From: an uncultured Actinomycetes bacterium
Lineage (GTDB): Bacteria > Actinomycetota > Acidimicrobiia > IMCC26256 > PALSA-610
DNA length: 64,000 bases
Direction of reading: 5' to 3'
Assembly: GCA_963836365.1 (NCBI GenBank)
Contig: CAWIJC010000002.1
Span: 617,058 to 681,057, forward strand
Positions 3,538-34,290 of the stretch are shown piece after piece. Below the pieces are notes generated by a model that was not told the DNA's origin, made no database searches, and was given only the letters and a program-made list of their open reading frames with translations. Positions within the stretch are counted from its first letter, which is position 1, and each line of letters starts with the position of its first letter. The position numbers and the translations under genes were made by a program.

Positions 3538-4727
3538 GCCCTCCTCAAGATCAGCGACGACACCGGGATCGACGCGGGGCCGCCGGTGACGAGCGCGATC
3601 TCCGCGTCCTCGACCTGGTTGATCGCGGCGCCTCGCATCTGCTCGACGGCTTCCATCACGTGGGTCATGCCGATGATGTACGCCTCGGAGAGGTTGCCGC
3701 CGTGCGTGTTGACCGGCAGCGAGCCGCCGGGCCACCGAATGTTGCCGTCACCGACGAACGGGCCGCCTTCACCGACCTTGCAGAACCCGTAGTCCTCGAG
3801 CTGCAGGATGACCATCGGGCTGAAGTGGTCGTAGACCAGCGCGACGTCGACGTCCTGGGGCGTCACGCCTGCCATCTCGTAGAGACGCCGGGCGACCGGG
3901 CGGTGTCCCGACGACGTGAACTCGTCGTCCGGCATGCCCATCCATGTGATCGCTTGCCCCCAACGACCGTGGCCTCCGTGTGCGGACGCCATCACGTACA
4001 CCGGCGGGTGCTCGAGGTCGCGCGCGCGCTCCGCACTGGTCGTGATCACCGCGACCGCGCCGTCGCATTCCAGGCAGAAGTCGTAAAGGCACAAGGGATC
4101 GGAGATCATCCGCGCGTTGAAGTAGTCGTCGCGCGTCAAGGGCTCCTTCATCAGCGCGTTCGGGCGGCGGATCGCGTTGTTGCGGGTCGAGATCGCGACC
4201 TCGCAGAAGTGCTCACGCGTTGTGCCGTACAGGTGCATGTGGCGCTGCGCGAGCACCGCGAACATCTGACCCGGCGCCATCAAGCCCGAAGGTTGGATGA
4301 AGTTGCCTTCGGGCGACGGGGGCGCGCTGTAGACCGCGCCCTTCTGACCGCGCGGCGCGAACGACGCGCCGAAGCGGCTCGCGGCTTGCTGCAACGTCAT
4401 CACCGACACGACACACTCGGCCATGCCGCTGTGGATCGCGGCGGCCGCCAGACCGACCGACCCTGCTGCGCCGCCTCCCCCGCCGGTGAGCATCGCGGTG
4501 AACCGCACGTCGCGCACGCCGAGCCATTGCGCGAACAGCGAGGTGTCGAAGCCCATGCTGTAGAGCGCGAACCCGTCGAGGTCGTCGACTGCGAGTCCCG
4601 CGTCCGCGAGGGCCGCCAGCGTGGCCTTTCCGGCGAGCTCCATCGCCGTCTGCGGCAACGACTCGCCACGCCGGTAGTACGGCGTCGCCCCCACCCCGAC
4701 CACCGCGGCCTTGTCCTTCAACGTCAC
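3534..4727 (-). CDS. SCP-x-type thiolase-like lipid-transfer protein (Ltp, nonspecific thiolase family)
   Basis: 398 aa from GTG 4727. VTLKDKAAVVGVGATPYYRRG...CLYDFCLECDGAVAVITTSAERARDL...NTHGGNLSEAYIIGM are thiolase-fold motifs. RBS GGAGGGG lies upstream. Confidence 0.8.
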   Translation of the reverse strand: MTLKDKAAVVGVGATPYYRRGESLPQTAMELAGKATLAALADAGLAVDDLDGFALYSMGFDTSLFAQWLGVRDVRFTAMLTGGGGGAAGSVGLAAAAIHSGMAECVVSVMTLQQAASRFGASFAPRGQKGAVYSAPPSPEGNFIQPSGLMAPGQMFAVLAQRHMHLYGTTREHFCEVAISTRNNAIRRPNALMKEPLTRDDYFNARMISDPLCLYDFCLECDGAVAVITTSAERARDLEHPPVYVMASAHGGHGRWGQAITWMGMPDDEFTSSGHRPVARRLYEMAGVTPQDVDVALVYDHFSPMVILQLEDYGFCKVGEGGPFVGDGNIRWPGGSLPVNTHGGNLSEAYIIGMTHVMEAVEQMRGAAINQVEDAEIALVTGGPASIPVSSLILRRA

Positions 4728-6566: not shown

Positions 6567-7858
6567 TGCCGGGCCACTCGCGGGATCTTGTGCGGCGGGC
6601 CGAGCCGCAGCAGCGCCGCGTCCGGCACGAGCTCGACGTCGGGTTCGACACCGGCCGCGTCCAGCACCGCCGCGCGCACTGCCTCGCCGACCTGCGGCAC
6701 ACGATCCGCCCACTCGGGCGCGTAGCCCACACGCAATCGCAGCCGGTCGACCGCGCGTGCCCCTCGCACCACCTGGAAGAGGCCCATCGCGGACGCGTCG
6801 ACGGTCTCGATCGCCGCCCATACGTCGACCGGCAACACCGACACGCCGTCGACGACGACCTCGTCGCTCTTGCGGCCGAGCGGCCACATCCGCGCGTGGG
6901 TGCGTCCGCAGGCGCAGCGTTCGGTCGTGAGGCGCACGATGTCGTCGGAGCGATACCGCACCAGCGGCGCGATGCGATTTTCGAGCGACGTCGCGACGAG
7001 CTCGCACCGATCGCCGTCGGCATCGACGCCTTCGACGAAGACCGTGTCCTCCCAGAAGTGGAGACCGTCGTGCGCGACGCACTCGAACGAACCGGTGACG
7101 TCGCCGACGTTGCCGTGCTCGAACAGCTCGATGCCCCAGCTCTCCGCGAGTGCACGCGCACGGGGCGACAGCGGCTCGCCGGCGAACGTGACGCCCCGGT
7201 ACGACGAGAACACGTCGCGCGGATCGAGGCCGCGCCGGTCACATGCGTCCTTCACCGCGTTGACGAGCACCGAGCCGAAGTTGTAGACGGCCGTCGGGCG
7301 GTATTCGAGCGACAGCTCGCAGAACCGCTCCATCTCGTCGGGATCGAAGTCGAGGAGAATCGGCGTCGTGCCGAGCGATCCCTGGAAGAGTCCGTACGTC
7401 GGTCCGCGGAACGTGAACAACACGAGCGCGACGTAGTCACCGGGCCGCACGCCCCAGCCCCAGAGATCGCGCGTGATGATCGACGGTGTGCCGCCGTTGC
7501 CGCCCCACTGCTCGGGGACGAGCGTCGGATCCCCGGTCGTGCCCGACGTCGAGCTCGCGCCGGTGAGCTCCGATGGCGGGACGCAGAGCAGGCCGCCGTA
7601 GGGATCACCGTGATCGTCGCGGAAGTGGCGCACCGTGTCCTTGTCGGTGAACGGCACACGCTCGCGGAAGTCTTCGAGCGACCGAATGTCGCGCGGCTGC
7701 ACATTGGCGGCGTCCCACACCGACCGGATCAGCGTCGAGCGCTCGTACGCGTACGGCAGCAGCTCGGCGAGGCGCGTCCACTGCAGCTCCTCGAGCTCGG
7801 CGCGTGGCATGGTCTCGATCTCGGGGGCGTAGTACTGCTGATCGCGCGGCAGGCTCAC
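6563..7858 (-). CDS. phenylacetate-CoA ligase-like adenylate-forming enzyme (PaaK / coenzyme F390 synthetase family)
   Basis: YYAPEIETMPRAELEELQWTRLAELLPYAYERS...TSGTTGDPTLVP...YRSDDIVRLTTERCACGRT matches the PaaK family. Confidence 0.75.
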   Translation of the reverse strand: MSLPRDQQYYAPEIETMPRAELEELQWTRLAELLPYAYERSTLIRSVWDAANVQPRDIRSLEDFRERVPFTDKDTVRHFRDDHGDPYGGLLCVPPSELTGASSTSGTTGDPTLVPEQWGGNGGTPSIITRDLWGWGVRPGDYVALVLFTFRGPTYGLFQGSLGTTPILLDFDPDEMERFCELSLEYRPTAVYNFGSVLVNAVKDACDRRGLDPRDVFSSYRGVTFAGEPLSPRARALAESWGIELFEHGNVGDVTGSFECVAHDGLHFWEDTVFVEGVDADGDRCELVATSLENRIAPLVRYRSDDIVRLTTERCACGRTHARMWPLGRKSDEVVVDGVSVLPVDVWAAIETVDASAMGLFQVVRGARAVDRLRLRVGYAPEWADRVPQVGEAVRAAVLDAAGVEPDVELVPDAALLRLGPPHKIPRVARQ

Positions 7859-27123: not shown

Positions 27124-28569
27124 TTATTCCTTCACCCGTTCGGCACGCAACGCCGAACGCCGGAGCTTCCCGGCGTCGTCACGCAGCGGCGCGTCGGTGA
27201 ATTCGAACGTGCGGGGGATCTTGTAGCGCACGAGCCGGTCGGCGAGGTGCGCTCGCAGCTCGTCGACGTCGATCGGCGTGCCGTCGTCGGTGTGGACGAT
27301 CGCGTGGACACGATTGCCGAGGTCGTCGTCGGGCAAGCCGATCACCGCGCAGGACCGCACCCGCGGATGCTCGTCGACCGCCGCCTCGACCTCGGCCGGG
27401 TAGATGTTCGCACCGCCGGCGAGGATCATGTCGGTCCGGCGGTCGCTGAGATAGAGGTAGCCGTCGGCGTCGATCATTCCCATGTCACCGAGCGATTCCC
27501 AGCCGCCGGCGATGCGCCGCGCGTGCGTGCCGACGTAGCGGTACGTCCGCACGCTCTCGTCGGCCGACGGCCGCATGAACACCTCGCCGACCTCGCTCTG
27601 ATCGGCGTCGGAACCGTCGGCGCGCATGATCTTGAACTGCTCGCGATCGACCTTGCCGACCGACCCGCGATGTTCGAGCCACTCCACACCGTTGATGATC
27701 GTCGCCGCCTGCGCTTCGGTCCCGGCATACAGCTCCCAGATCACCGGCGCGCCCAGCCACTCGATCCATTCTTCCTTCAACCACGCTGGGCAGGGCGCCG
27801 CGAGGTGCCACACGACCTTCAGCGACGACACGTCGTAGCGATCGCGCACGGCGCGCGGCAGCTTCGAGATGCGCGCCATCATCGTCGGTACGACGTACAT
27901 CGAATCGGGATGGTGCGTGTCGATCAGTGCGAGCGTCTTTTCGGCGTCGAATGCGCCGCCGAGGATCACGTGGTTCCCCGCGAGCAATGCGGTCATCGTC
28001 CACACGAAGGGGCCGTTGTGATAGAGCGGTCCGGGCATCAGATGCGTGCCGTCGAGCTTCATCATCAGCAGCGGCGGCGCGTCGGGATCGATCACACCGC
28101 GCACGCTGGCTTCGATGAGCTTCGGACGCCCGGTCGACCCGCCCGACGTCATCGCCTTCCACGGCTCGGAGACTGCGTCGGGCAGTGGGCCGTCGTCGAA
28201 GCCGTCGACTGCGAGCGGCTCGCCGACGACGACCCGGGGATGCGCGAGCGCGATGATCGCGTCGAGCTCGCGCTCGGGAAGACGCGACGACACTGGTTGT
28301 GGCGTCGCTCCGAGCTTCAGGCACGCGATCACCGCGGCGACGAAATCCACCGAGTTCGGCAACGCGATCGTGAGACGATCACCCCGTTGCACGCCCTTGG
28401 CCCGGAGCGCGCGTGCGGCGCGATTCGCATACCGTTCGAGCTCGCCGCGCGTCACCGTGCGTTGTGGGTCGGTGATCGTGGGACGATCGGGAGCAGCCGT
28501 CGCATGAACGCGGAGCCGCTGCGCGTACGAGATCAGAGCCACAAGCGGGATTCTGCCTGATTTCCCCAT
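27124..28569 (-). CDS. AMP-dependent acyl-CoA synthetase/ligase
   Basis: MGKSGRIPLVAL...MTSGGSTGRPK...YAGTEAQA...GDMGMIDADGYLYLSDRRTDMI...YKIP. Confidence 0.8.
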   Translation of the reverse strand: MGKSGRIPLVALISYAQRLRVHATAAPDRPTITDPQRTVTRGELERYANRAARALRAKGVQRGDRLTIALPNSVDFVAAVIACLKLGATPQPVSSRLPERELDAIIALAHPRVVVGEPLAVDGFDDGPLPDAVSEPWKAMTSGGSTGRPKLIEASVRGVIDPDAPPLLMMKLDGTHLMPGPLYHNGPFVWTMTALLAGNHVILGGAFDAEKTLALIDTHHPDSMYVVPTMMARISKLPRAVRDRYDVSSLKVVWHLAAPCPAWLKEEWIEWLGAPVIWELYAGTEAQAATIINGVEWLEHRGSVGKVDREQFKIMRADGSDADQSEVGEVFMRPSADESVRTYRYVGTHARRIAGGWESLGDMGMIDADGYLYLSDRRTDMILAGGANIYPAEVEAAVDEHPRVRSCAVIGLPDDDLGNRVHAIVHTDDGTPIDVDELRAHLADRLVRYKIPRTFEFTDAPLRDDAGKLRRSALRAERVKE

Positions 28570-28778
28570 CCCGCGGCATCGGGCGCGCCCGGCCCGGCGC
28601 ACCGCCGCACCGCCGCCTTCAACCAGCGCAGCGTTTGGAGCTCTGCATCACACGCTCCACATCCGTCGAGGTGTGCCGCGATCGTCAGCATCGTCACGAC
28701 GTCGCACTCACAGTCGACATAGCACTGAATGATCGCGAGCACCTCTCGACACGAAGGGTCATTCGGCTCGCTCGCTGC
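28533..28778 (-). CDS. ZAS-family zinc-binding anti-sigma factor (RsrA/RshA-like), apparently without an adjacent ECF sigma gene
   Basis: SCREVLAIIQCYVDCECDVVTMLTIAAHLDGCGACDAELQTLRWLKAAVRRCAG shows HxxxCxxC plus conserved upstream Cys. The exact start is uncertain. Confidence 0.6.
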   Translation of the reverse strand, partial: AASEPNDPSCREVLAIIQCYVDCECDVVTMLTIAAHLDGCGACDAELQTLRWLKAAVRRCAGPGAPDAAGWGNQAESRLWL

Positions 28779-28840
28779 CACGAGGAGGGCCAACGGCACG
28801 AAGGGCGGCGTGATTCCCCGGTGACTTACGATGCGCCGCC

Positions 28841-29605
28841 ATGCAGCTCGCAAACTCCACTGCGATCGTCACCGGCGGCGCTTCCGGCATGGGAGAGGCC
28901 TCGGCCCGCCGCTTGTCGCACGCCGGCGCCACCGTCGTCATCGTCGACCGCGACGCCGGCAAGGGCGAGAAGGTCGCGTCCGGACCTCGGCGGCCGGTTC
29001 GTCCGAGCCGACGTCACCAACGAACACGACGTCAGCGCGGCCGTCGCCGCCGCGACGGCGCTCGCGCCGCTGCGCGCGTGCATTCACTGCGCGGGCATAG
29101 GGTGGGCGGAGCGCACGATCAATCGCGAGGGCGGCCCGCACTCGCTGGACTCGTTCCGCAGCGGTCATCGAGATCAACTTGATCGGCACGTTCAACGTGT
29201 TGCGGCTCGCGGCGTCGGGGATGTCGGCGAACGACCCCGACGCGCGAAGGCCAGCGCGGCGTGATCGTGAACACCGCATCGATCGCCGCGTTCGACGGCC
29301 AGATCGGCCAGGCCGCGTACTCGGCCTCGAAGGGCGGCGTCGTCGCGCTCACGCTGACCGCAGCGCGCGACCTTTCTGCCGCCGGCATCCGCGTCTGCAC
29401 GATCGCGCCGGGCTCATCGACACGCCGCTGCTCGGCGGGCTGCCCGCAGACGCAGCGCGACGCGCTGGCGAAGTCGGTGTTGTTCCCGAAGCGTCTCGGC
29501 GTTCCCGACGACTTCGCGTCGCTCGCGATGGAGATCGTGCGCAACGGCTACCTCAACGGCGAAGTGATCCGAATGGACGCCGGCATCCGAATGCCGCCGA
29601 AGTAG
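28841..29605 (+). pseudogene. SDR family oxidoreductase (3-hydroxyacyl-CoA dehydrogenase type), at least three frame changes
   Basis: MQLANSTAIVTGGASGMGEA (frame 2), ELGGRFVRADVTNEHDV...CIHCAGIG (frame 3), [30 protein letters not shown]...[10 protein letters not shown] (frame 2). Confidence 0.6.
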
Positions 29606-29672
29606 CGTGTGCGCTCGCGTCCGCCGGCTGCGCCTCTGGCCTCCCGGCCCCGAAGTTTGCAACACTGCCCAG

Positions 29673-30895
29673 ATGCCGAATCACGAGCAACGGGACGACA
29701 TCGATCTTCTCGAAGGGTCGTTCTACGTCGACAACCCGCGCGAGAAGTACGCGTGGATGCGGGAGCACGCGCCGGTGTACTTCGACGCCCGCAACGGCGT
29801 GTGGGGCATCGCGACCTACGACGCGTTGCTGGCGGCCGAGAAGAACCCGACGACGTTCTCGAACGCGGGCGGGATCCGCCCCGACAACGGGCCGATCCCG
29901 ATGATGATCGACATGGACGATCCCGAGCACTGGAAGCGACGCAAGCTCGTGAACAAGGGCTTCACGCCGCGGCGCGTGCGCGACAGTGAAACCGAGATCC
30001 GCGCGGTGTGCGACCAGATCATCGACTTCGATCTGCGAGCGCGGCGAGTGCGACTTCGTCAACGACATCGCGGCGCCCCTGCCGATGATCCTGATCGGCG
30101 ACATGCTCGGCGTCGAGCCCGAAGGATCGCGGCGACCTGCTGCGATGGTCCGACGACATGGTCGAGCGTGCTGAGCGGCAGCGCGACCGAGGAGCAGCAG
30201 ATGCGCTCGATCGCGGCGATGGAGGGCTACATCGGGTTCTGCACGCACGCGGTCGCGCAGCGGCAAGCCGCACCGACCGACGACCTCATGAGCGTGCTCG
30301 TGCACGCCGAGGTCGACGGCGACCGTTTGACCCCCGACGACGTGCTGCACGAGTCGTTGCTGATCCTCATCGGCGGCGACGAGACGACGCGCCACGTCAT
30401 CAGCGGCGGCATGGAACAGCTGATGTTGCAACCCGAGCAACACAGGCTGCTCGTCGACGACCCGAGCAAGATCACGGTGGCGGTCGAAGAGATGCTGCGG
30501 TGGGTATCGCCGATCAAGAACATGTGCCGCACGGTCACGCACGACACCGAGTTCTGGGGCGAGCAACTCTCACGCGGGACAGAAGTGCATGTTGCTGTTC
30601 GAGTCCGCGAACCTCGACGAGGGGAAGTTCGACGAGCCCGAGCGCTTCGACGTCGAGCGGCACCCGAACGAGCACGTCGCGTTCGGGTTCGGCACGCACT
30701 ACTGCCTCGGTCAGGCGCTCGCGCGCCTCGAGCTGAAGGTGATGTTCGAGCAGCTGCTGACGCGGCTCCCCGACCTCGAGCTCGCTGCCGATCCCGCGGC
30801 AGCTGCCCCGCCGCCGTGCGAATTTCATCAGCGGCTTGGAGAAGATGCCGGTCACGTTCTCGCCGTCGCGGCCGCTCGCACGCGCATCGGCATGA
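29673..30895 (+). CDS. cytochrome P450; at least three frameshifts (about 29985, 30130, 30600-30840)
   Basis: ExxR motif VEEMLRWVSP, heme loop FGFGTHYCLGQALARLE, and the end ...FISGLEKMPVTFSP in a +1 frame. The stop TGA overlaps the next ATG (ATGA). Confidence 0.7.
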
Positions 30896-31330
30896 ACACC
30901 CGCGAGCTCGTCGAACGGTTCTGGGGCGACCTGTACCGCCGCGACTTCGACGCGGTCGGCGCGTACTTCGCCGACGACGGCGAGTACACCGACATGCCGA
31001 CGCCGGCCGAAGACGTCGCACGCGGTCCTGCACAGATCGCGGCCCGACTGCGGCTCGGTCTCGAGCCACTCGAGTCGATCTCGCACGACATCCGCGTGAT
31101 CGTGTGCGAGGGCGACACCGCGGTGACCGAGCACGTCGAGCACTGGGCGTGGCCCACCGGGGAACGCGCGAGCTTGCCGTTCGTCTCGGTGCAGCAGTTC
31201 CGTGAGCGGCAAGATCGTCCGGTGGTGGGACTACTGGGACCTCGCCACGCTGATGAACGCCGCGCCCGCGTGGTGGGTCGAGCACATCATGAGTGAGAGC
31301 GCGCGCGTCGGCCTGCGAGACGACACAGCA
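30892..31330 (+). CDS. SnoaL-like / NTF2-like (limonene-epoxide-hydrolase fold) protein; frameshift near 31200; 3-prime end uncertain
   Basis: MNTRELVERFWGDLYRRDFDAVGAYFADDGEYTDMPTPAE..., then after a frame change GKIVRWWDYWDLATLMNAAPAWWVEHIM. Confidence 0.6.
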
Positions 31331-31388
31331 GCCCTGACGGCGATTGCGGCATTCGGTGTCTCGGGCGCGGCATCGTTATCCTCGCCCC

Positions 31389-31763
31389 ATGGCGAGCGAG
31401 GGCTACCACGAGCCAATCGAAGCGTTGTCGGCCGACGTGCTCGATCGGCACCGGGCGATCACGTCGTTGAAGGAAGAGCTCGAGGCCGTCGACTGGTACG
31501 ACCAACGTGTCGCGGCCACCGGCGACGACGAGCTGCGCAGCGTGCTCGCGCACAACCGCGACGAGGAAAAAGAGCACGCGGCGATGACGCTCGAGTGGCT
31601 GCGGCGCAACGACGCCAAGTGGGACGAGGTGCTGCGCACCTACCTCTTCACGAGCCGCCCGATCGTCGAGGTCGAAAAGGAAGCCGACGCAGAGACGGAG
31701 AGTGGGAACGCTGCCGCCCGGCAGGGCCCCGCGCCCGGGCGACTTGCGGAAGGAGCCACCCCG
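31389..31763 (+). CDS. encapsulated ferritin-like protein (EncFtn); ORF continues in-frame without stop into the encapsulin shell gene
   Basis: MASEGYHEPIEALSADVLDRHRAITSLKEELEAVDWYDQRVAATGDDELRSVLAHNRDEEKEHAAMTLEWLRRNDAKWDEVLRTYLFT matches EncFtn, followed by an E/A/G/P-rich 37-aa linker. Confidence 0.8.
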
Positions 31764-32568
31764 ATGAACCACCTGCGCCGCGAGCTCGCGCCGATCTCCG
31801 ACGCCGCGTGGGCCGAGATCGACGAAGAGGCCGAGCGAACGCTGAAGCACTTCCTCACCGCACGCCGACTCGTCGACTTCGCCGGCCCGCTGGGATGGTC
31901 GACCGACGCAGTGTCGCGCGGTCACGTCGACGACATCACGCAGGCACCGGCCGGAGTCGGCGGGCGCATCCGCGTCACGCAACCGCTGCTCGAGTATCGC
32001 GCCGAGTTCTGGGTGGCACGCGCCGAGCTCGACACGATCGACCGCGGCGCGCGCGACGCCGACCTCGATCCGGTACGCGACGCGGCCCGGCGGCTCGCGC
32101 TCGCCGAAGACGAAGCGATCTTCCATGGCAACCATTCGGCGTCGATCACCGGCATCACCGAGGGTTCGCATCCGAAGCTGCCGATCAGCGACGACTACCG
32201 CGACTATCCGCAATCGGTGGCGCGGGCGGTCGCGATGCTGCAGTCCTCGGGCATCGCGGGCCCGTACGCGGTCGCGCTCGGTCCGCGCTGCTATACAGGC
32301 GTGATCGAGACGACCGAGATGGGCGGCTATCCCGTTCTCGAGCACCTGCGCCTGATCGCGGGCGGGCCCGTGTTGTGGGCGCCGTCGGTGGACGGCGGAG
32401 TCGTGCATATCACTGCGCGGCGACGACTACCTGCTGAGCGTCGGCGAGGACACCGCGATCGGCTACCTCGACCACGACGACACGAACGTGCACCTCTACT
32501 TCGAGGAGTCGTTCACGTTCCAGGTCTTCACGCCCGAAGCCGCGGTGCACCTCAGCTACGGCGCTTGA
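31764..32568 (+). CDS. family 1 encapsulin nanocompartment shell protein (linocin M18-like); one frameshift near 32410
   Basis: ATG 31764 with RBS GGAAGGAG 8 nt upstream. MNHLRRELAPISDAAWAEIDEEAERTLKHFLTARRLVDFAGPLGWS...GGPVLWAPSVDGGVV, then after a frame change ...SLRGDDYLLSVGEDTAIGYLDHDDTNVHLYFEESFTFQVFTPEAAVHLSYGA; stop 32566-32568. Confidence 0.85.
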
Positions 32569-32606
32569 GTCACACAGATCTTGCATTTCTGCATGATCTG
32601 TGTGAC
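32569..32606. terminator. perfect 12-bp inverted repeat GTCACACAGATC-(14 nt)-GATCTGTGTGAC immediately after the encapsulin stop
   Basis: Seen in the sequence. Confidence 0.55.
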
Positions 32607-32615
32607 TCATAGGTC

Positions 32616-32904
32616 GTGATCCTCGTCGACCGGGCGCGGTGGGCCGGTCGGGACGACCTGCAGGTTCGCGCACCTGGTCAGCGACACGTCGTACGACGAG
32701 CTGCACGCGTTCGTTGCCGGGCTTGCGACACCGCGACCTCTGCGCTTCCACCGCGACCATTACGACGTGCCCGCGCCGTGGTGGCAGACGGCGGTCGACG
32801 CGGGCGCGCGGGTGGTCGCAACGCGCGAGATCGTCGCGCGGCTGCGGGCCGCCGGTTTGCGCACGACTTCGGCGGGAACCGCACCACGCGGTCGCGACGG
32901 ATGA
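32616..32904 (+). CDS. DUF4031 domain protein; frameshift near 32650
   Basis: VILVDRARWAGR, then in the other frame RFAHLVSDTSYDELHAFVAGLATPRPLRFHRDHYDVPAPWWQTAVDAGARVVATREIVARLRAAGL. Confidence 0.6.
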
Positions 32905-32940
32905 CTTCGCAGTTCGAGGTCGCGGTCCTCGACGCGTCCG

Positions 32941-34015
32941 CTACGAGGACGATGTTGCCCACGATATGCACAGACGCTCAACCAGCGCCGGCGCTCCGGC
33001 GAGTACGACGTACTCGACGTTGCGTGTGTGCGACACACGCCCGACCTTCTTCCCACCGGGATCGTGGATGCCGATCATCGCGCCGACGTAACGACGGGAA
33101 TCGAACGCGAGCACACCGACCGCGTCGCCGCGGGCCGCGCACATTGCTTCCAGCTCCTCGCGCGTGATCCACGCTTCGTTGTTGTACGAGACCACGACGA
33201 GCTCGGCGTCGACGTCGCGGACGACTTCGCGCGAGCGCGCCGGGCATCGCCCGGCGCTCGTTGAACACGCTCTTCGTCGCGGGATCACGAGCGTCGATTC
33301 GCTTGCACGCGACGCCATAGTGATCGGGCGCGTCCCACGCGACGATCGTTTCCCACACGTGGTAGTTCGTGAAGTAGCGGTGCTGGTTGTACGGCGGGTC
33401 GAGATACGCGAGGTCGAACTGCCCGAGCGCGCGCACCGCCTGGCGCGCGTCGGCCCGTACTGCCGCACCTTCACCGGCGACCAGCTCGGGTACGCGTAAG
33501 GTGAGCGGTTGGAACGAGCGCGGCGCCCACTGCTTCACGTACGCCATCTGCACACCGGTGGTCGAGTCGACACGGTCGGCCGCCTCGATCAGGCTGGTCA
33601 ACAGCACCGGGTACAGCCACTCGCTCTTGTAGTCGCGCTCGATCGCATCGCGGATCGCGTCGATGCGACGGCCGTTGTGCGGTTGGAAGAAGCGTGATCG
33701 CCGGCAGAACGTCTCGGTGACATAGCCGTCGAGCCGGGCGCGTCGCCGAAGTCGCGGAGCGCATCATCGAGCTCCGAGCGATTCGACCGTGTCGGCGTCG
33801 AGCGCCACATAGCACTGCGCGAACACCTCCGCGTAGCGGGCGGTGTCGACCGCGGTCACGTGCGTGCCTTGCCGCTTGAACGCCTGCGCGACCCGGGTCG
33901 TGCCGGTGAACAGGTCGATTGCCCGCCGGGCACCGGCGCGAGCGCAGATGTCGCCGAGCACCGGCACGAGCCGCCGTTTGGAACCGATGTACTTGATCAG
34001 GCTTCGGGACCGTAG
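32941..34015 (-). pseudogene. Dam-family (D12 class) N6-adenine DNA methyltransferase, at least three frame changes
   Basis: N-terminal YIGSKRRLVPVLGDICARAGARRAIDLFTGTTRV (motif I), DPPY motif FDLAYLDPPYNQHRYFTNYHVWETIVAWD, and the C-terminal VVVSYNNEAWITREELEAM...RVSHTRNVEYVV, each in a different frame. Confidence 0.65.
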
Positions 34016-34018
34016 TCT

Positions 34019-34290
34019 TCACGCTGTGGCAAGGGTTGTATCCCACTCGGTGAACGGCCAGATCCTGGTACAGGTCGAGATGCCCGGCCTCAACCCCGAG
34101 ACCGACGTGAAGATCGAGTTGCGCGCGGGCGCGCTCGCGCTCGAGATCCGCCACCGTCGAAGCAGGGCGCACCGAGAGGTCTCGCAGGTGATCTCGATCC
34201 CCGCGGGCGTCACCGCCGACGATCTCAAGATGTCGCGCACCGACGACGGCATGGAGATCCGGATCTCACCGCCCGGATCGAACGAGTTGC
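34019..34290 (+). pseudogene. possible Hsp20/alpha-crystallin-domain remnant
   Basis: VNGQILVQVEMPGLNPETDVKIELRAGALALEIRHRR...REVSQVISIPAGVTADDLKMSRTDDGMEIRISPP resembles an alpha-crystallin domain core. It lacks an N-terminal region and overlaps the P450 3-prime end on the other strand. Confidence 0.3.

Follow-up and report, generated by a model that had tools for sequence, protein, structure and literature searches.

The window analyzed here is a stretch of 64 kb with a G+C content of 68% from an uncultured Acidimicrobiia bacterium. Using Pfam and NCBIfam profiles, we identified five plus-strand genes between positions 28841 and 32568 that encode a short-chain dehydrogenase/reductase (SDR), a cytochrome P450, a SnoaL/limonene epoxide hydrolase (LEH)-like protein, the encapsulin cargo EncFtn, and a Family 1 encapsulin shell. 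An initial annotation, made from the letters of the window, had named the same families in the same orientation, and both are borne out. It had also read the genes as one translationally coupled unit in which an oxidative tailoring module might perform its chemistry inside the encapsulin. We find instead what appear to be two ordinary modules, a catabolic P450 module and an encapsulin iron-storage pair, that are neighbors by descent (we put the probability of this reading at about 0.7), and nothing shows that the P450 module and the encapsulin pair work together.

The P450 lies in a setting that looks like an actinobacterial-type sterol/lipid side-chain catabolic neighborhood rather than the secondary-metabolite tailoring module that had been proposed. 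After frame correction, it is 59.6% identical to CYP142A1 of M. tuberculosis (PDB 8a6w/2xkr) over 394 aa (E about 6e-156), and the corrected translation contains the heme-ligand motif FGFGTHYCLG. It therefore has both the ≥40% identity to named members and the heme-thiolate motif that define the CYP142 family. The protein is accordingly a CYP142; its steroid C26-monooxygenase activity is predicted from orthology alone, and a sterol is the presumed substrate of the module. The SDR matches PDB 4xgn (E 6.6e-82) and Rv1144 (6ujk, E 1.7e-73), and its frame-corrected product is 91% identical to the orthologue in the related genome L008. Surrounding genes encode a divergent acyl-CoA synthetase, a MaoC hydratase, another SDR, amidohydrolases, a second P450, and a TetR regulator. 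The P450 thus resembles mycobacterial CYP142 (Rv3518c, the cholesterol side-chain C26-monooxygenase) in its full-length identity and heme-Cys motif, and its neighbors resemble those of the mycobacterial cluster in being of the steroid side-chain beta-oxidation type (acyl-CoA synthetase, type-II 3-hydroxyacyl-CoA dehydrogenase, MaoC hydratase). It differs from the mycobacterial enzyme in its host, an uncultured Acidimicrobiia lineage, and in the ATGA overlap of its gene with that of an LEH-like SnoaL, whose tail is a conserved ...ESARVGLRE. To our knowledge, a slot for encapsulin or DyP behind CYP142, as seen here, has not been described for mycobacteria. The first module would then consist of a type-II 3-hydroxyacyl-CoA dehydrogenase, CYP142, and the LEH-like SnoaL acting in sterol/lipid side-chain oxidation as part of a larger catabolic neighborhood, with CYP142 and SnoaL coupled in translation through the ATGA.

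The second module is, as judged from profile matches and gene order, a canonical Family 1 pair. EncFtn matches PF22277 (4.6e-41) and TIGR04535 (146 bits, cut-off 125); the frame-corrected shell matches PF04454 (1.1e-80, 271 bits) and NF041155 (299 bits, cut-off 100), is 80% identical to its L008 orthologue, and contains no in-frame stop. The sequence features by which Family 1 is recognized are present, namely an HK97-fold Linocin_M18/encap_f1 shell, an adjacent EncFtn cargo gene, and a C-terminal targeting peptide on the cargo. With one inserted base removed, the EncFtn tail reads ...GPAPGDLRKEPPR followed by the stop, a variant common to the window and to the related locus L001; the tails of relatives end in DLxLGDLR[KRE]EPPR or GSLGIGDLRREPPR, with the stop overlapping the shell ATG. 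The window and L001 variant, GPAPGDLR[KN]EPPR, lacks the two hydrophobic residues (a Leu/Ile pair) found upstream in the LxLGDLR of relatives. As in all relatives, the EncFtn TGA (31765-31767) overlaps the shell ATG (31764-31766) as ATGA. The Shine-Dalgarno sequence of the shell (GGAAGGAG, 31745-31755) lies in the codons that specify ...LRKEPPR in the EncFtn tail, which may help to explain the strong conservation of residues after the targeting core. One frame of the window, 31344-32612, spans both genes; we rejected an in-frame EncFtn-encapsulin fusion on the grounds that the EncFtn tail and stop lie in the +1 frame and that the genes overlap as ATGA.

The pair resembles the two-gene operon of Rhodospirillum rubrum and Haliangium ochraceum, with EncFtn directly upstream of and tightly coupled to a Linocin_M18/HK97-fold shell, a cargo ending in a short ...LG(D/S)LR...-type targeting peptide, and proteins that exceed the NCBIfam cut-offs. 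It differs from that type in lying inside a co-directional catabolic gene string rather than standing alone. In this module EncFtn would oxidize Fe(II) for iron storage while its C-terminal ...GDLRKEPPR peptide anchors it in the shell interior, and the shell would be translated from a start overlapped by the EncFtn stop and a ribosome-binding site within the tail codons. A stable hairpin beginning at the encapsulin stop codon (Table 1) occurs once in the window and in none of the 166 related loci; it probably forms the 3′ end or a stabilizer of the encapsulin transcript. This hairpin contains two GATC sites.

Table 1. Genes and predicted signals at the P450-encapsulin locus of the window.
Feature	Coordinates	Strand	Basis
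SDR, type-II 3-hydroxyacyl-CoA dehydrogenase (HSD10/Rv1144-like)	28841..29605	+	Pfam adh_short/adh_short_C2; PDB matches
CYP142-family P450, putative steroid C26-monooxygenase orthologue	29673..30895	+	PDB 8a6w/2xkr; heme-ligand motif
SnoaL/LEH-like NTF2-fold gene	30892..31337 (end approximate)	+	Pfam SnoaL_2, SnoaL, LEH
TATCCT, TANNNT -10-like hexamer, candidate leaderless promoter of EncFtn-encapsulin	31377..31382	+	prediction
EncFtn cargo gene with C-terminal targeting peptide ...GPAPG/DLRKEPPR-stop	31389..31767	+	PF22277, TIGR04535
Family 1 encapsulin shell gene (Linocin_M18)	31764..32568	+	PF04454, NF041155
Hairpin with 20-nt arms, from the encapsulin stop codon	32566..32609	+	free energy -40.4 kcal/mol, z = -7.6; inverted repeat I1
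DUF4031 gene, frameshifted; far border of the variable slot	32616..33091	+	tblastn with L001 DUF4031 protein, two frames
Small zf-HC2 open reading frame, RsrA-like, HxxxCxxC	28536..28853	-	PF13490 22.6 bits; TIGR03988 33.9 bits
Dam-like D12 methyltransferase gene	32944-34042	-	near the encapsulin-stop hairpin

The spacing of the five genes is uneven. The P450 gene runs 4 nt into the SnoaL gene (TGA 30893-30895, ATG 30892-30894), an ATGA that had been noticed initially and that is real in the corrected P450 frame only; the EncFtn-shell spacing is likewise -4 nt. In contrast to these two junctions, 67 nt separate the SDR from the P450 and about 50-60 nt separate SnoaL from EncFtn, and neither of these pairs is coupled. 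The tight packing that had been described therefore holds for P450-SnoaL and EncFtn-encapsulin and fails for the other two junctions, and without near-zero spacing between all consecutive genes the translational coupling of all five is not supported.

The spacer between SnoaL and EncFtn varies from 16 to 509 nt among relatives, and in six of them (L002, L007-L009, L044, L087) it carries a ChaB-like gene (PF06150) on the opposite strand. This ChaB-family open reading frame (ORF; 7386-7856 on the minus strand of L008, with a weak Rho_N match) lies in a spacer of about 487 nt in several relatives, and neither the window nor L001 has it. We also observed a conserved imperfect inverted repeat, ..GTCACG(Y)TTACCCA-N11-13-GGGTA(C/T).. 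(GTCACGYTTACCCA-N11-13-GGGTA), 25-45 nt before the EncFtn ATG of relatives (L002, L007, L008, L009, L044, L087, and L093). It may serve the encapsulin operon of these relatives as promoter or operator and is not evident in the window spacer. Neither the window nor L001 has a Shine-Dalgarno sequence before the EncFtn ATG. Both share a conserved block in which TATCCT, matching TANNNT, stands 6 nt before this ATG. A TANNNT box just before the ATG is the geometry of leaderless transcripts in actinobacteria, which suggests that EncFtn has a promoter of its own with a predicted leaderless start. A scan for the sigma-70 consensus returned 0 promoter-like sites in the region, and the terminator scan gave a single terminator-like site, which falls within the P450 gene in minus-strand orientation.

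As the window stands, not one of the five genes (0/5) forms a continuous ORF; in the ORF list each is spread over two or three frames. Using a frameshift-aware dynamic-programming alignment of the window to intact orthologues from the short-read metagenome-assembled genome (MAG) L008 and from locus L001, we find about 13 single-base events, mostly +1 insertions, between 28.8 and 32.6 kb, all of which the initial annotation had read through unnoticed. The SDR has +1 events at about 28982, 29163, 29242, and 29443 and a -1 event at 29415. The P450 has +1 insertions at 30027, 30124, 30164, 30573, and 30802, and its length of 1223 nt, or 406 codons plus 5 bases, agrees with five insertions. SnoaL and the encapsulin have one +1 insertion each, at 31207 and 32406, and three-frame translation inspected by eye adds a +1 event in EncFtn at about 31737-31742, just before the tail peptide. 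Further downstream, the alignment shows frameshifts in the methyltransferase, the second P450, and the amidohydrolase.

The character of these events points to error rather than biology. Altogether, 17 of the 19 frameshifts called in window genes are +1 events, and we found no in-frame stops, nonsense substitutions, or deletions >1 nt in the aligned window genes. Identity to orthologues (80-91%) holds on both sides of every shift, and in the plot of third-position G+C the coding signal switches frame within genes uninterrupted, with values of 0.85-1.0 in every shifted segment. Other nanopore MFD MAGs have a +1 excess at other positions: 27/29 events in L044, 10/11 in L039, 16/22 in L030 (plus four +2), and 4/6 in L003. 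The nanopore MAG L007, which probably has better coverage, has two frameshifts, and the short-read MAG L009 has none against the proteins of L008, the ORFs of L008 being intact. Because the +1 excess is common to nanopore MAGs and absent in the short-read MAG L009, and because unrelated genes of the window are hit too, we infer, indirectly, that the frameshifts are single-base insertion errors of a long-read assembly. The broken frames, like the long SnoaL extension discussed below, would then be artifacts. This calls for caution in reading such sequences by themselves, since insertions together with stop-poor frames in high-G+C long-read MAGs can fake "extensions", "fusions", and "couplings".

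Single-base (+1) frameshifts are found on both strands across 28.8-39 kb and also near 2640, 38143, 38827, and 44190; the genes affected include those for DUF4031, the D12 methyltransferase, the second P450, the amidohydrolase, TetR, and two acyl-CoA synthetase paralogues. GATC/Dam methylation was considered as the cause of the insertions and set aside, GATC being present in some insertion contexts and not in most. L001 was rejected as a clean reference for the shell, the middle of which is garbled by compensating frameshifts, and L008 was used instead. The L001 encapsulin (1495-2298) is called as an intact ORF of 267 aa, yet its residues from about 58 to 183 are out of frame; with two compensating frameshifts in this gene, the JGI contig of L001 therefore carries indel errors too.

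SnoaL matches the Pfam families SnoaL_2 (3.6e-17), SnoaL (1.5e-14), and LEH (6.5e-7, 30 bits), and its matches to limonene epoxide hydrolases in PDB are distant (E 1e-8 to 1e-5). By its predicted fold and its Pfam LEH match the protein appears LEH-like. It shares these Pfam matches and the modeled fold with LEH/SnoaL NTF2-fold enzymes, including M. tuberculosis EphG (Rv2740). It differs from characterized LEHs in being only weakly similar in sequence (E 1e-8 or worse) and in having the subfamily motifs RWWDYWD and EHVEHWxW together with a C-terminal helix extension. In the AlphaFold model of the closest intact homologue (confidence score, pLDDT, 92.9), the protein is a confident alpha+beta cone, its tail prolongs the last helix (residues 126-138), and the final 5 or so residues are disordered, with no flexible linker.

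The initial annotation had given SnoaL a C-terminal extension of about 40 aa and proposed it as a non-canonical targeting sequence. The SnoaL frame is indeed free of stops into the EncFtn region, as far as 32437; this is uninformative because at 68% G+C we count 95 ORFs ≥60 aa in 13 kb. The extension itself is absent in all 1163 homologues found, which span 142-151 aa and have their stop 1-2 (in rare cases up to 12) residues past ...ESARVGLR[DE]; the closest, 88-90% identical, stop 1-2 residues after ...WWVEHIMSESARVGLRE/D. SARVGLRD is thus the real conserved tail, and what follows, DTAALTAIAAFGVSGAASLS..., is translated intergenic spacer, across which the window aligns with L001 up to the EncFtn ATG. 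The gene most likely ends at the TGA at 31335-31337, which needs one more +1 insertion in 31322-31334; the protein would then read ...GLRDDTAA before the stop and have a length within the normal range. Because a second SnoaL subfamily ends in ...HIMQGYT, the ...ESARVGLRE helix extension (...ESAR[VI]GLR[DE] among homologues) is specific to the CYP142-linked subfamily. RWWDYWD and EHVEHWxW are present in the second subfamily too (L050-L086, Acidimicrobiaceae/Acidimicrobiales), whose genes do not have a P450, SDR, or encapsulin in their vicinity.

From 11 EncFtn tails of the window's clade we built a 10-column targeting-peptide matrix. EncFtn of the window scores 25.5 bits on it. In contrast to this cargo, the SDR (-2.8 bits), CYP142 (1.2 bits), and SnoaL with the proposed extension included (-0.6 bits) do not score above shuffled sequences, so the profile comparison of C-termini that had been suggested finds no targeting-peptide motif in SnoaL or the P450. 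The extension was rejected as a targeting peptide on this score and on its absence in homologues, its alignment to the L001 spacer, and the helical nature of the real tail. The P450, SnoaL, and SDR show neither a targeting peptide of the kind used by their own system nor a consistent co-occurrence with a shell, the two marks by which cargo would be recognized.

The history of the locus was read from its relatives, for which one genome per species was scanned with the SnoaL alignment and 80 loci were annotated by tblastn; none of the 80 reaches ≥95% identity, and an exact look-up of two intact proteins of the window gave no match. The block of acyl-CoA synthetase (minus strand), SDR, CYP142, and SnoaL is kept in 38 uncultured Acidimicrobiia/Actinomycetota genomes, and in 34 of these the sequence extends far enough downstream to show the content of the slot that SnoaL and DUF4031 enclose. 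This slot holds EncFtn-encapsulin in 11/34, a DyP-type peroxidase in 7/34, and nothing in 16/34, where DUF4031 follows 10-30 nt after SnoaL; because the two genes are this close when the slot is empty, it lies inside a co-directional gene string. The synteny comparison that had been proposed as a check on the linkage consequently gives a split answer: EncFtn-encapsulin follows the block in 11 of the 34, so the linkage is not fully refuted, and at this locus the block lacks an adjacent shell gene in the remaining 23/34 related species genomes. Taken as a whole, the initial annotation stands in its gene content, orientation, P450-SnoaL ATGA, and a linkage seen in about a third of relatives; it does not stand in its frames, extension, and targeting sequence.

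In the reverse search, with the shell protein against metagenomes, all relatives of ≥67% identity with enough flank have SnoaL/P450 upstream. Encapsulins of ≤62% identity lack them in every case, and for about ten of these 4.5 kb of sequence was available on that side. Distances of Enc+EncFtn and of the P450 module are correlated (r = 0.91, Mantel p about 2e-4). In a neighbor-joining tree of SDR+CYP142+SnoaL, the encapsulin state is found in at least 4 clades, including the deepest, and a clade of DyP and empty states is sister to the clade of the window. Because of this distribution and the correlated distances, we conclude that the adjacency is old, vertically inherited, repeatedly lost, and dispensable. 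The cassette would have entered the SnoaL-DUF4031 slot in an ancestor of this uncultured Acidimicrobiia clade and then been inherited vertically and lost repeatedly, with one subclade having a DyP peroxidase in the same position.

The slot DyP (L011, 7441-8325; L013, L015, L016, L023, L025, and L032) matches PF20628, is about 295 aa long, and ends in ...IEAMGDVFG. DyP peroxidase is the other classic function associated with encapsulins, and the slot DyP is about 36% identical to DyPs that adjoin shells. The likeness to DyP-encapsulin systems (M. tuberculosis Cfp29-DyP, Rhodococcus jostii DypB) lies in peroxide defense tied to lipid/sterol metabolism; unlike these systems, the DyP of the slot lacks both a C-terminal targeting extension and a neighboring shell. 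Classical DyP-encapsulin pairs are found among distant relatives (L109, L165, and L166). In L046, an EncFtn-like ORF of 97 aa (4324-4617) follows SnoaL without a targeting tail or a shell gene and may be a remnant of the cassette.

Several observations weigh against mere neighborhood by descent. The adjacency is old and has been kept in at least 4 clades at up to about 32-38% protein divergence, a retention that exceeds trivial shared ancestry and could reflect selection. A DyP begins 5 nt after the SnoaL stop in 7 genomes, which hints that oxidative-stress functions have been recruited to the P450 operon. The promoter call for EncFtn rests on a 6-nt motif, and no terminator-like hairpin was found between SnoaL and EncFtn (z = -0.33), so that read-through transcription from the P450 operon into EncFtn-encapsulin may occur. 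These points lead to the most credible non-trivial alternative, prompted by the DyP in the same slot of another subclade, in which the position after CYP142-SnoaL is selected as one of protection. EncFtn-encapsulin, sequestering Fe2+, or DyP, removing peroxide, would be co-expressed with the P450 operon, where they would curb the Fenton damage that arises from P450 uncoupling, or else buffer the supply of iron and heme. The encapsulins of the clade (≥67% identity) always stand here wherever the upstream flank sufficed and co-diverge with the module, the slot lies within the gene string, and upstream, in divergent orientation, there is an ORF for an RsrA-like zinc finger of the redox type. A role in oxidative stress, reportedly held by the mycobacterial DyP-encapsulin, would be echoed by such an arrangement. 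However, the module is kept with an empty slot in 16 of the 34 relatives, the spacer is highly variable in length and in six relatives holds the antisense ChaB-like gene, and the inverted repeat before EncFtn in relatives and the -10-like box in the window look like signals of a separate transcription unit. Additionally, our literature search for encapsulin and P450 returned engineering papers and reviews only, with no native association. We therefore regard selected protection as possible and rather unlikely. It nevertheless marks a lead, an uncultured soil Acidimicrobiia clade that has had EncFtn-encapsulin or DyP in a CYP142-operon slot since its common ancestor; if retention of the slot reflects selection, P450-driven lipid/sterol catabolism would be linked to iron and peroxide management.

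Far less probable still are the readings in which the frameshifts are real or the P450 module is cargo. A decaying pseudogene tract, covering SDR-CYP142-SnoaL-EncFtn-encapsulin and the downstream genes to about 39 kb, would fit the strongly uneven density of frameshifts, which also tells against sequencing error: there are 0 in about 6.3 kb of upstream genes (gyrB, MaoC, SDR1, amidohydrolase, and acyl-CoA synthetase, with none within 18.4-28.6 kb) and about 13 in the next 3.7 kb. It would also fit the loss of the encapsulin cassette in many relatives. However, the events are almost exclusively +1, with no nonsense changes or longer deletions, steady identity past each shift, and third-position G+C that stays high; the signature recurs elsewhere in other nanopore MAGs and not in short-read MAGs, and it extends to unrelated window genes (at about 2.6, 38.1, 38.8, and 44.2 kb). 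We consider such decay quite improbable. Encapsulation of the P450, SnoaL, or SDR is more improbable again. That one or more of these proteins are encapsulin cargo, with oxidation taking place inside the shell by way of the SnoaL C-terminus, draws on the restriction of the real tail, ...SARVGLR[DE], to the P450-linked subfamily and on the disorder of its last residues in the model. The tail may also loosely resemble GGDLGIRK, the targeting peptide of Thermotoga maritima, in its h-G-h-R core. However, no homologue has the 40-aa extension, the matrix finds nothing in the three proteins, and the C-termini of the SDR and CYP142 are like those of non-encapsulated homologues. The tail, which prolongs a helix and offers no flexible linker, is at least as conserved in genomes without an adjacent encapsulin as in those with one, and several lineages that do have the encapsulin carry degraded forms of it (AAADAGLRGA, AAAAAGLGEG, SQSTAD). 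This leaves hardly any room for the cargo reading. Barely less doubtful is a narrower form of it in which conserved ...SARVGLR(D/E) acts as a minimal, linker-less docking peptide by which SnoaL would reach the inside of the encapsulin or another partner, perhaps bringing CYP142 along with it; if true, sterol oxidation would be tied physically to an iron-sequestering compartment.

The small zf-HC2 ORF is divergent to the SDR, and it runs into the acyl-CoA synthetase gene, which follows it on that strand. The ORF may encode a regulator that senses redox state; its TIGR03988 score lies below the cut-off of 62.5 bits, and an orthologous ORF is present in L008. At the far border of the slot, the DUF4031 orthologue of L001 is matched by PF13223.

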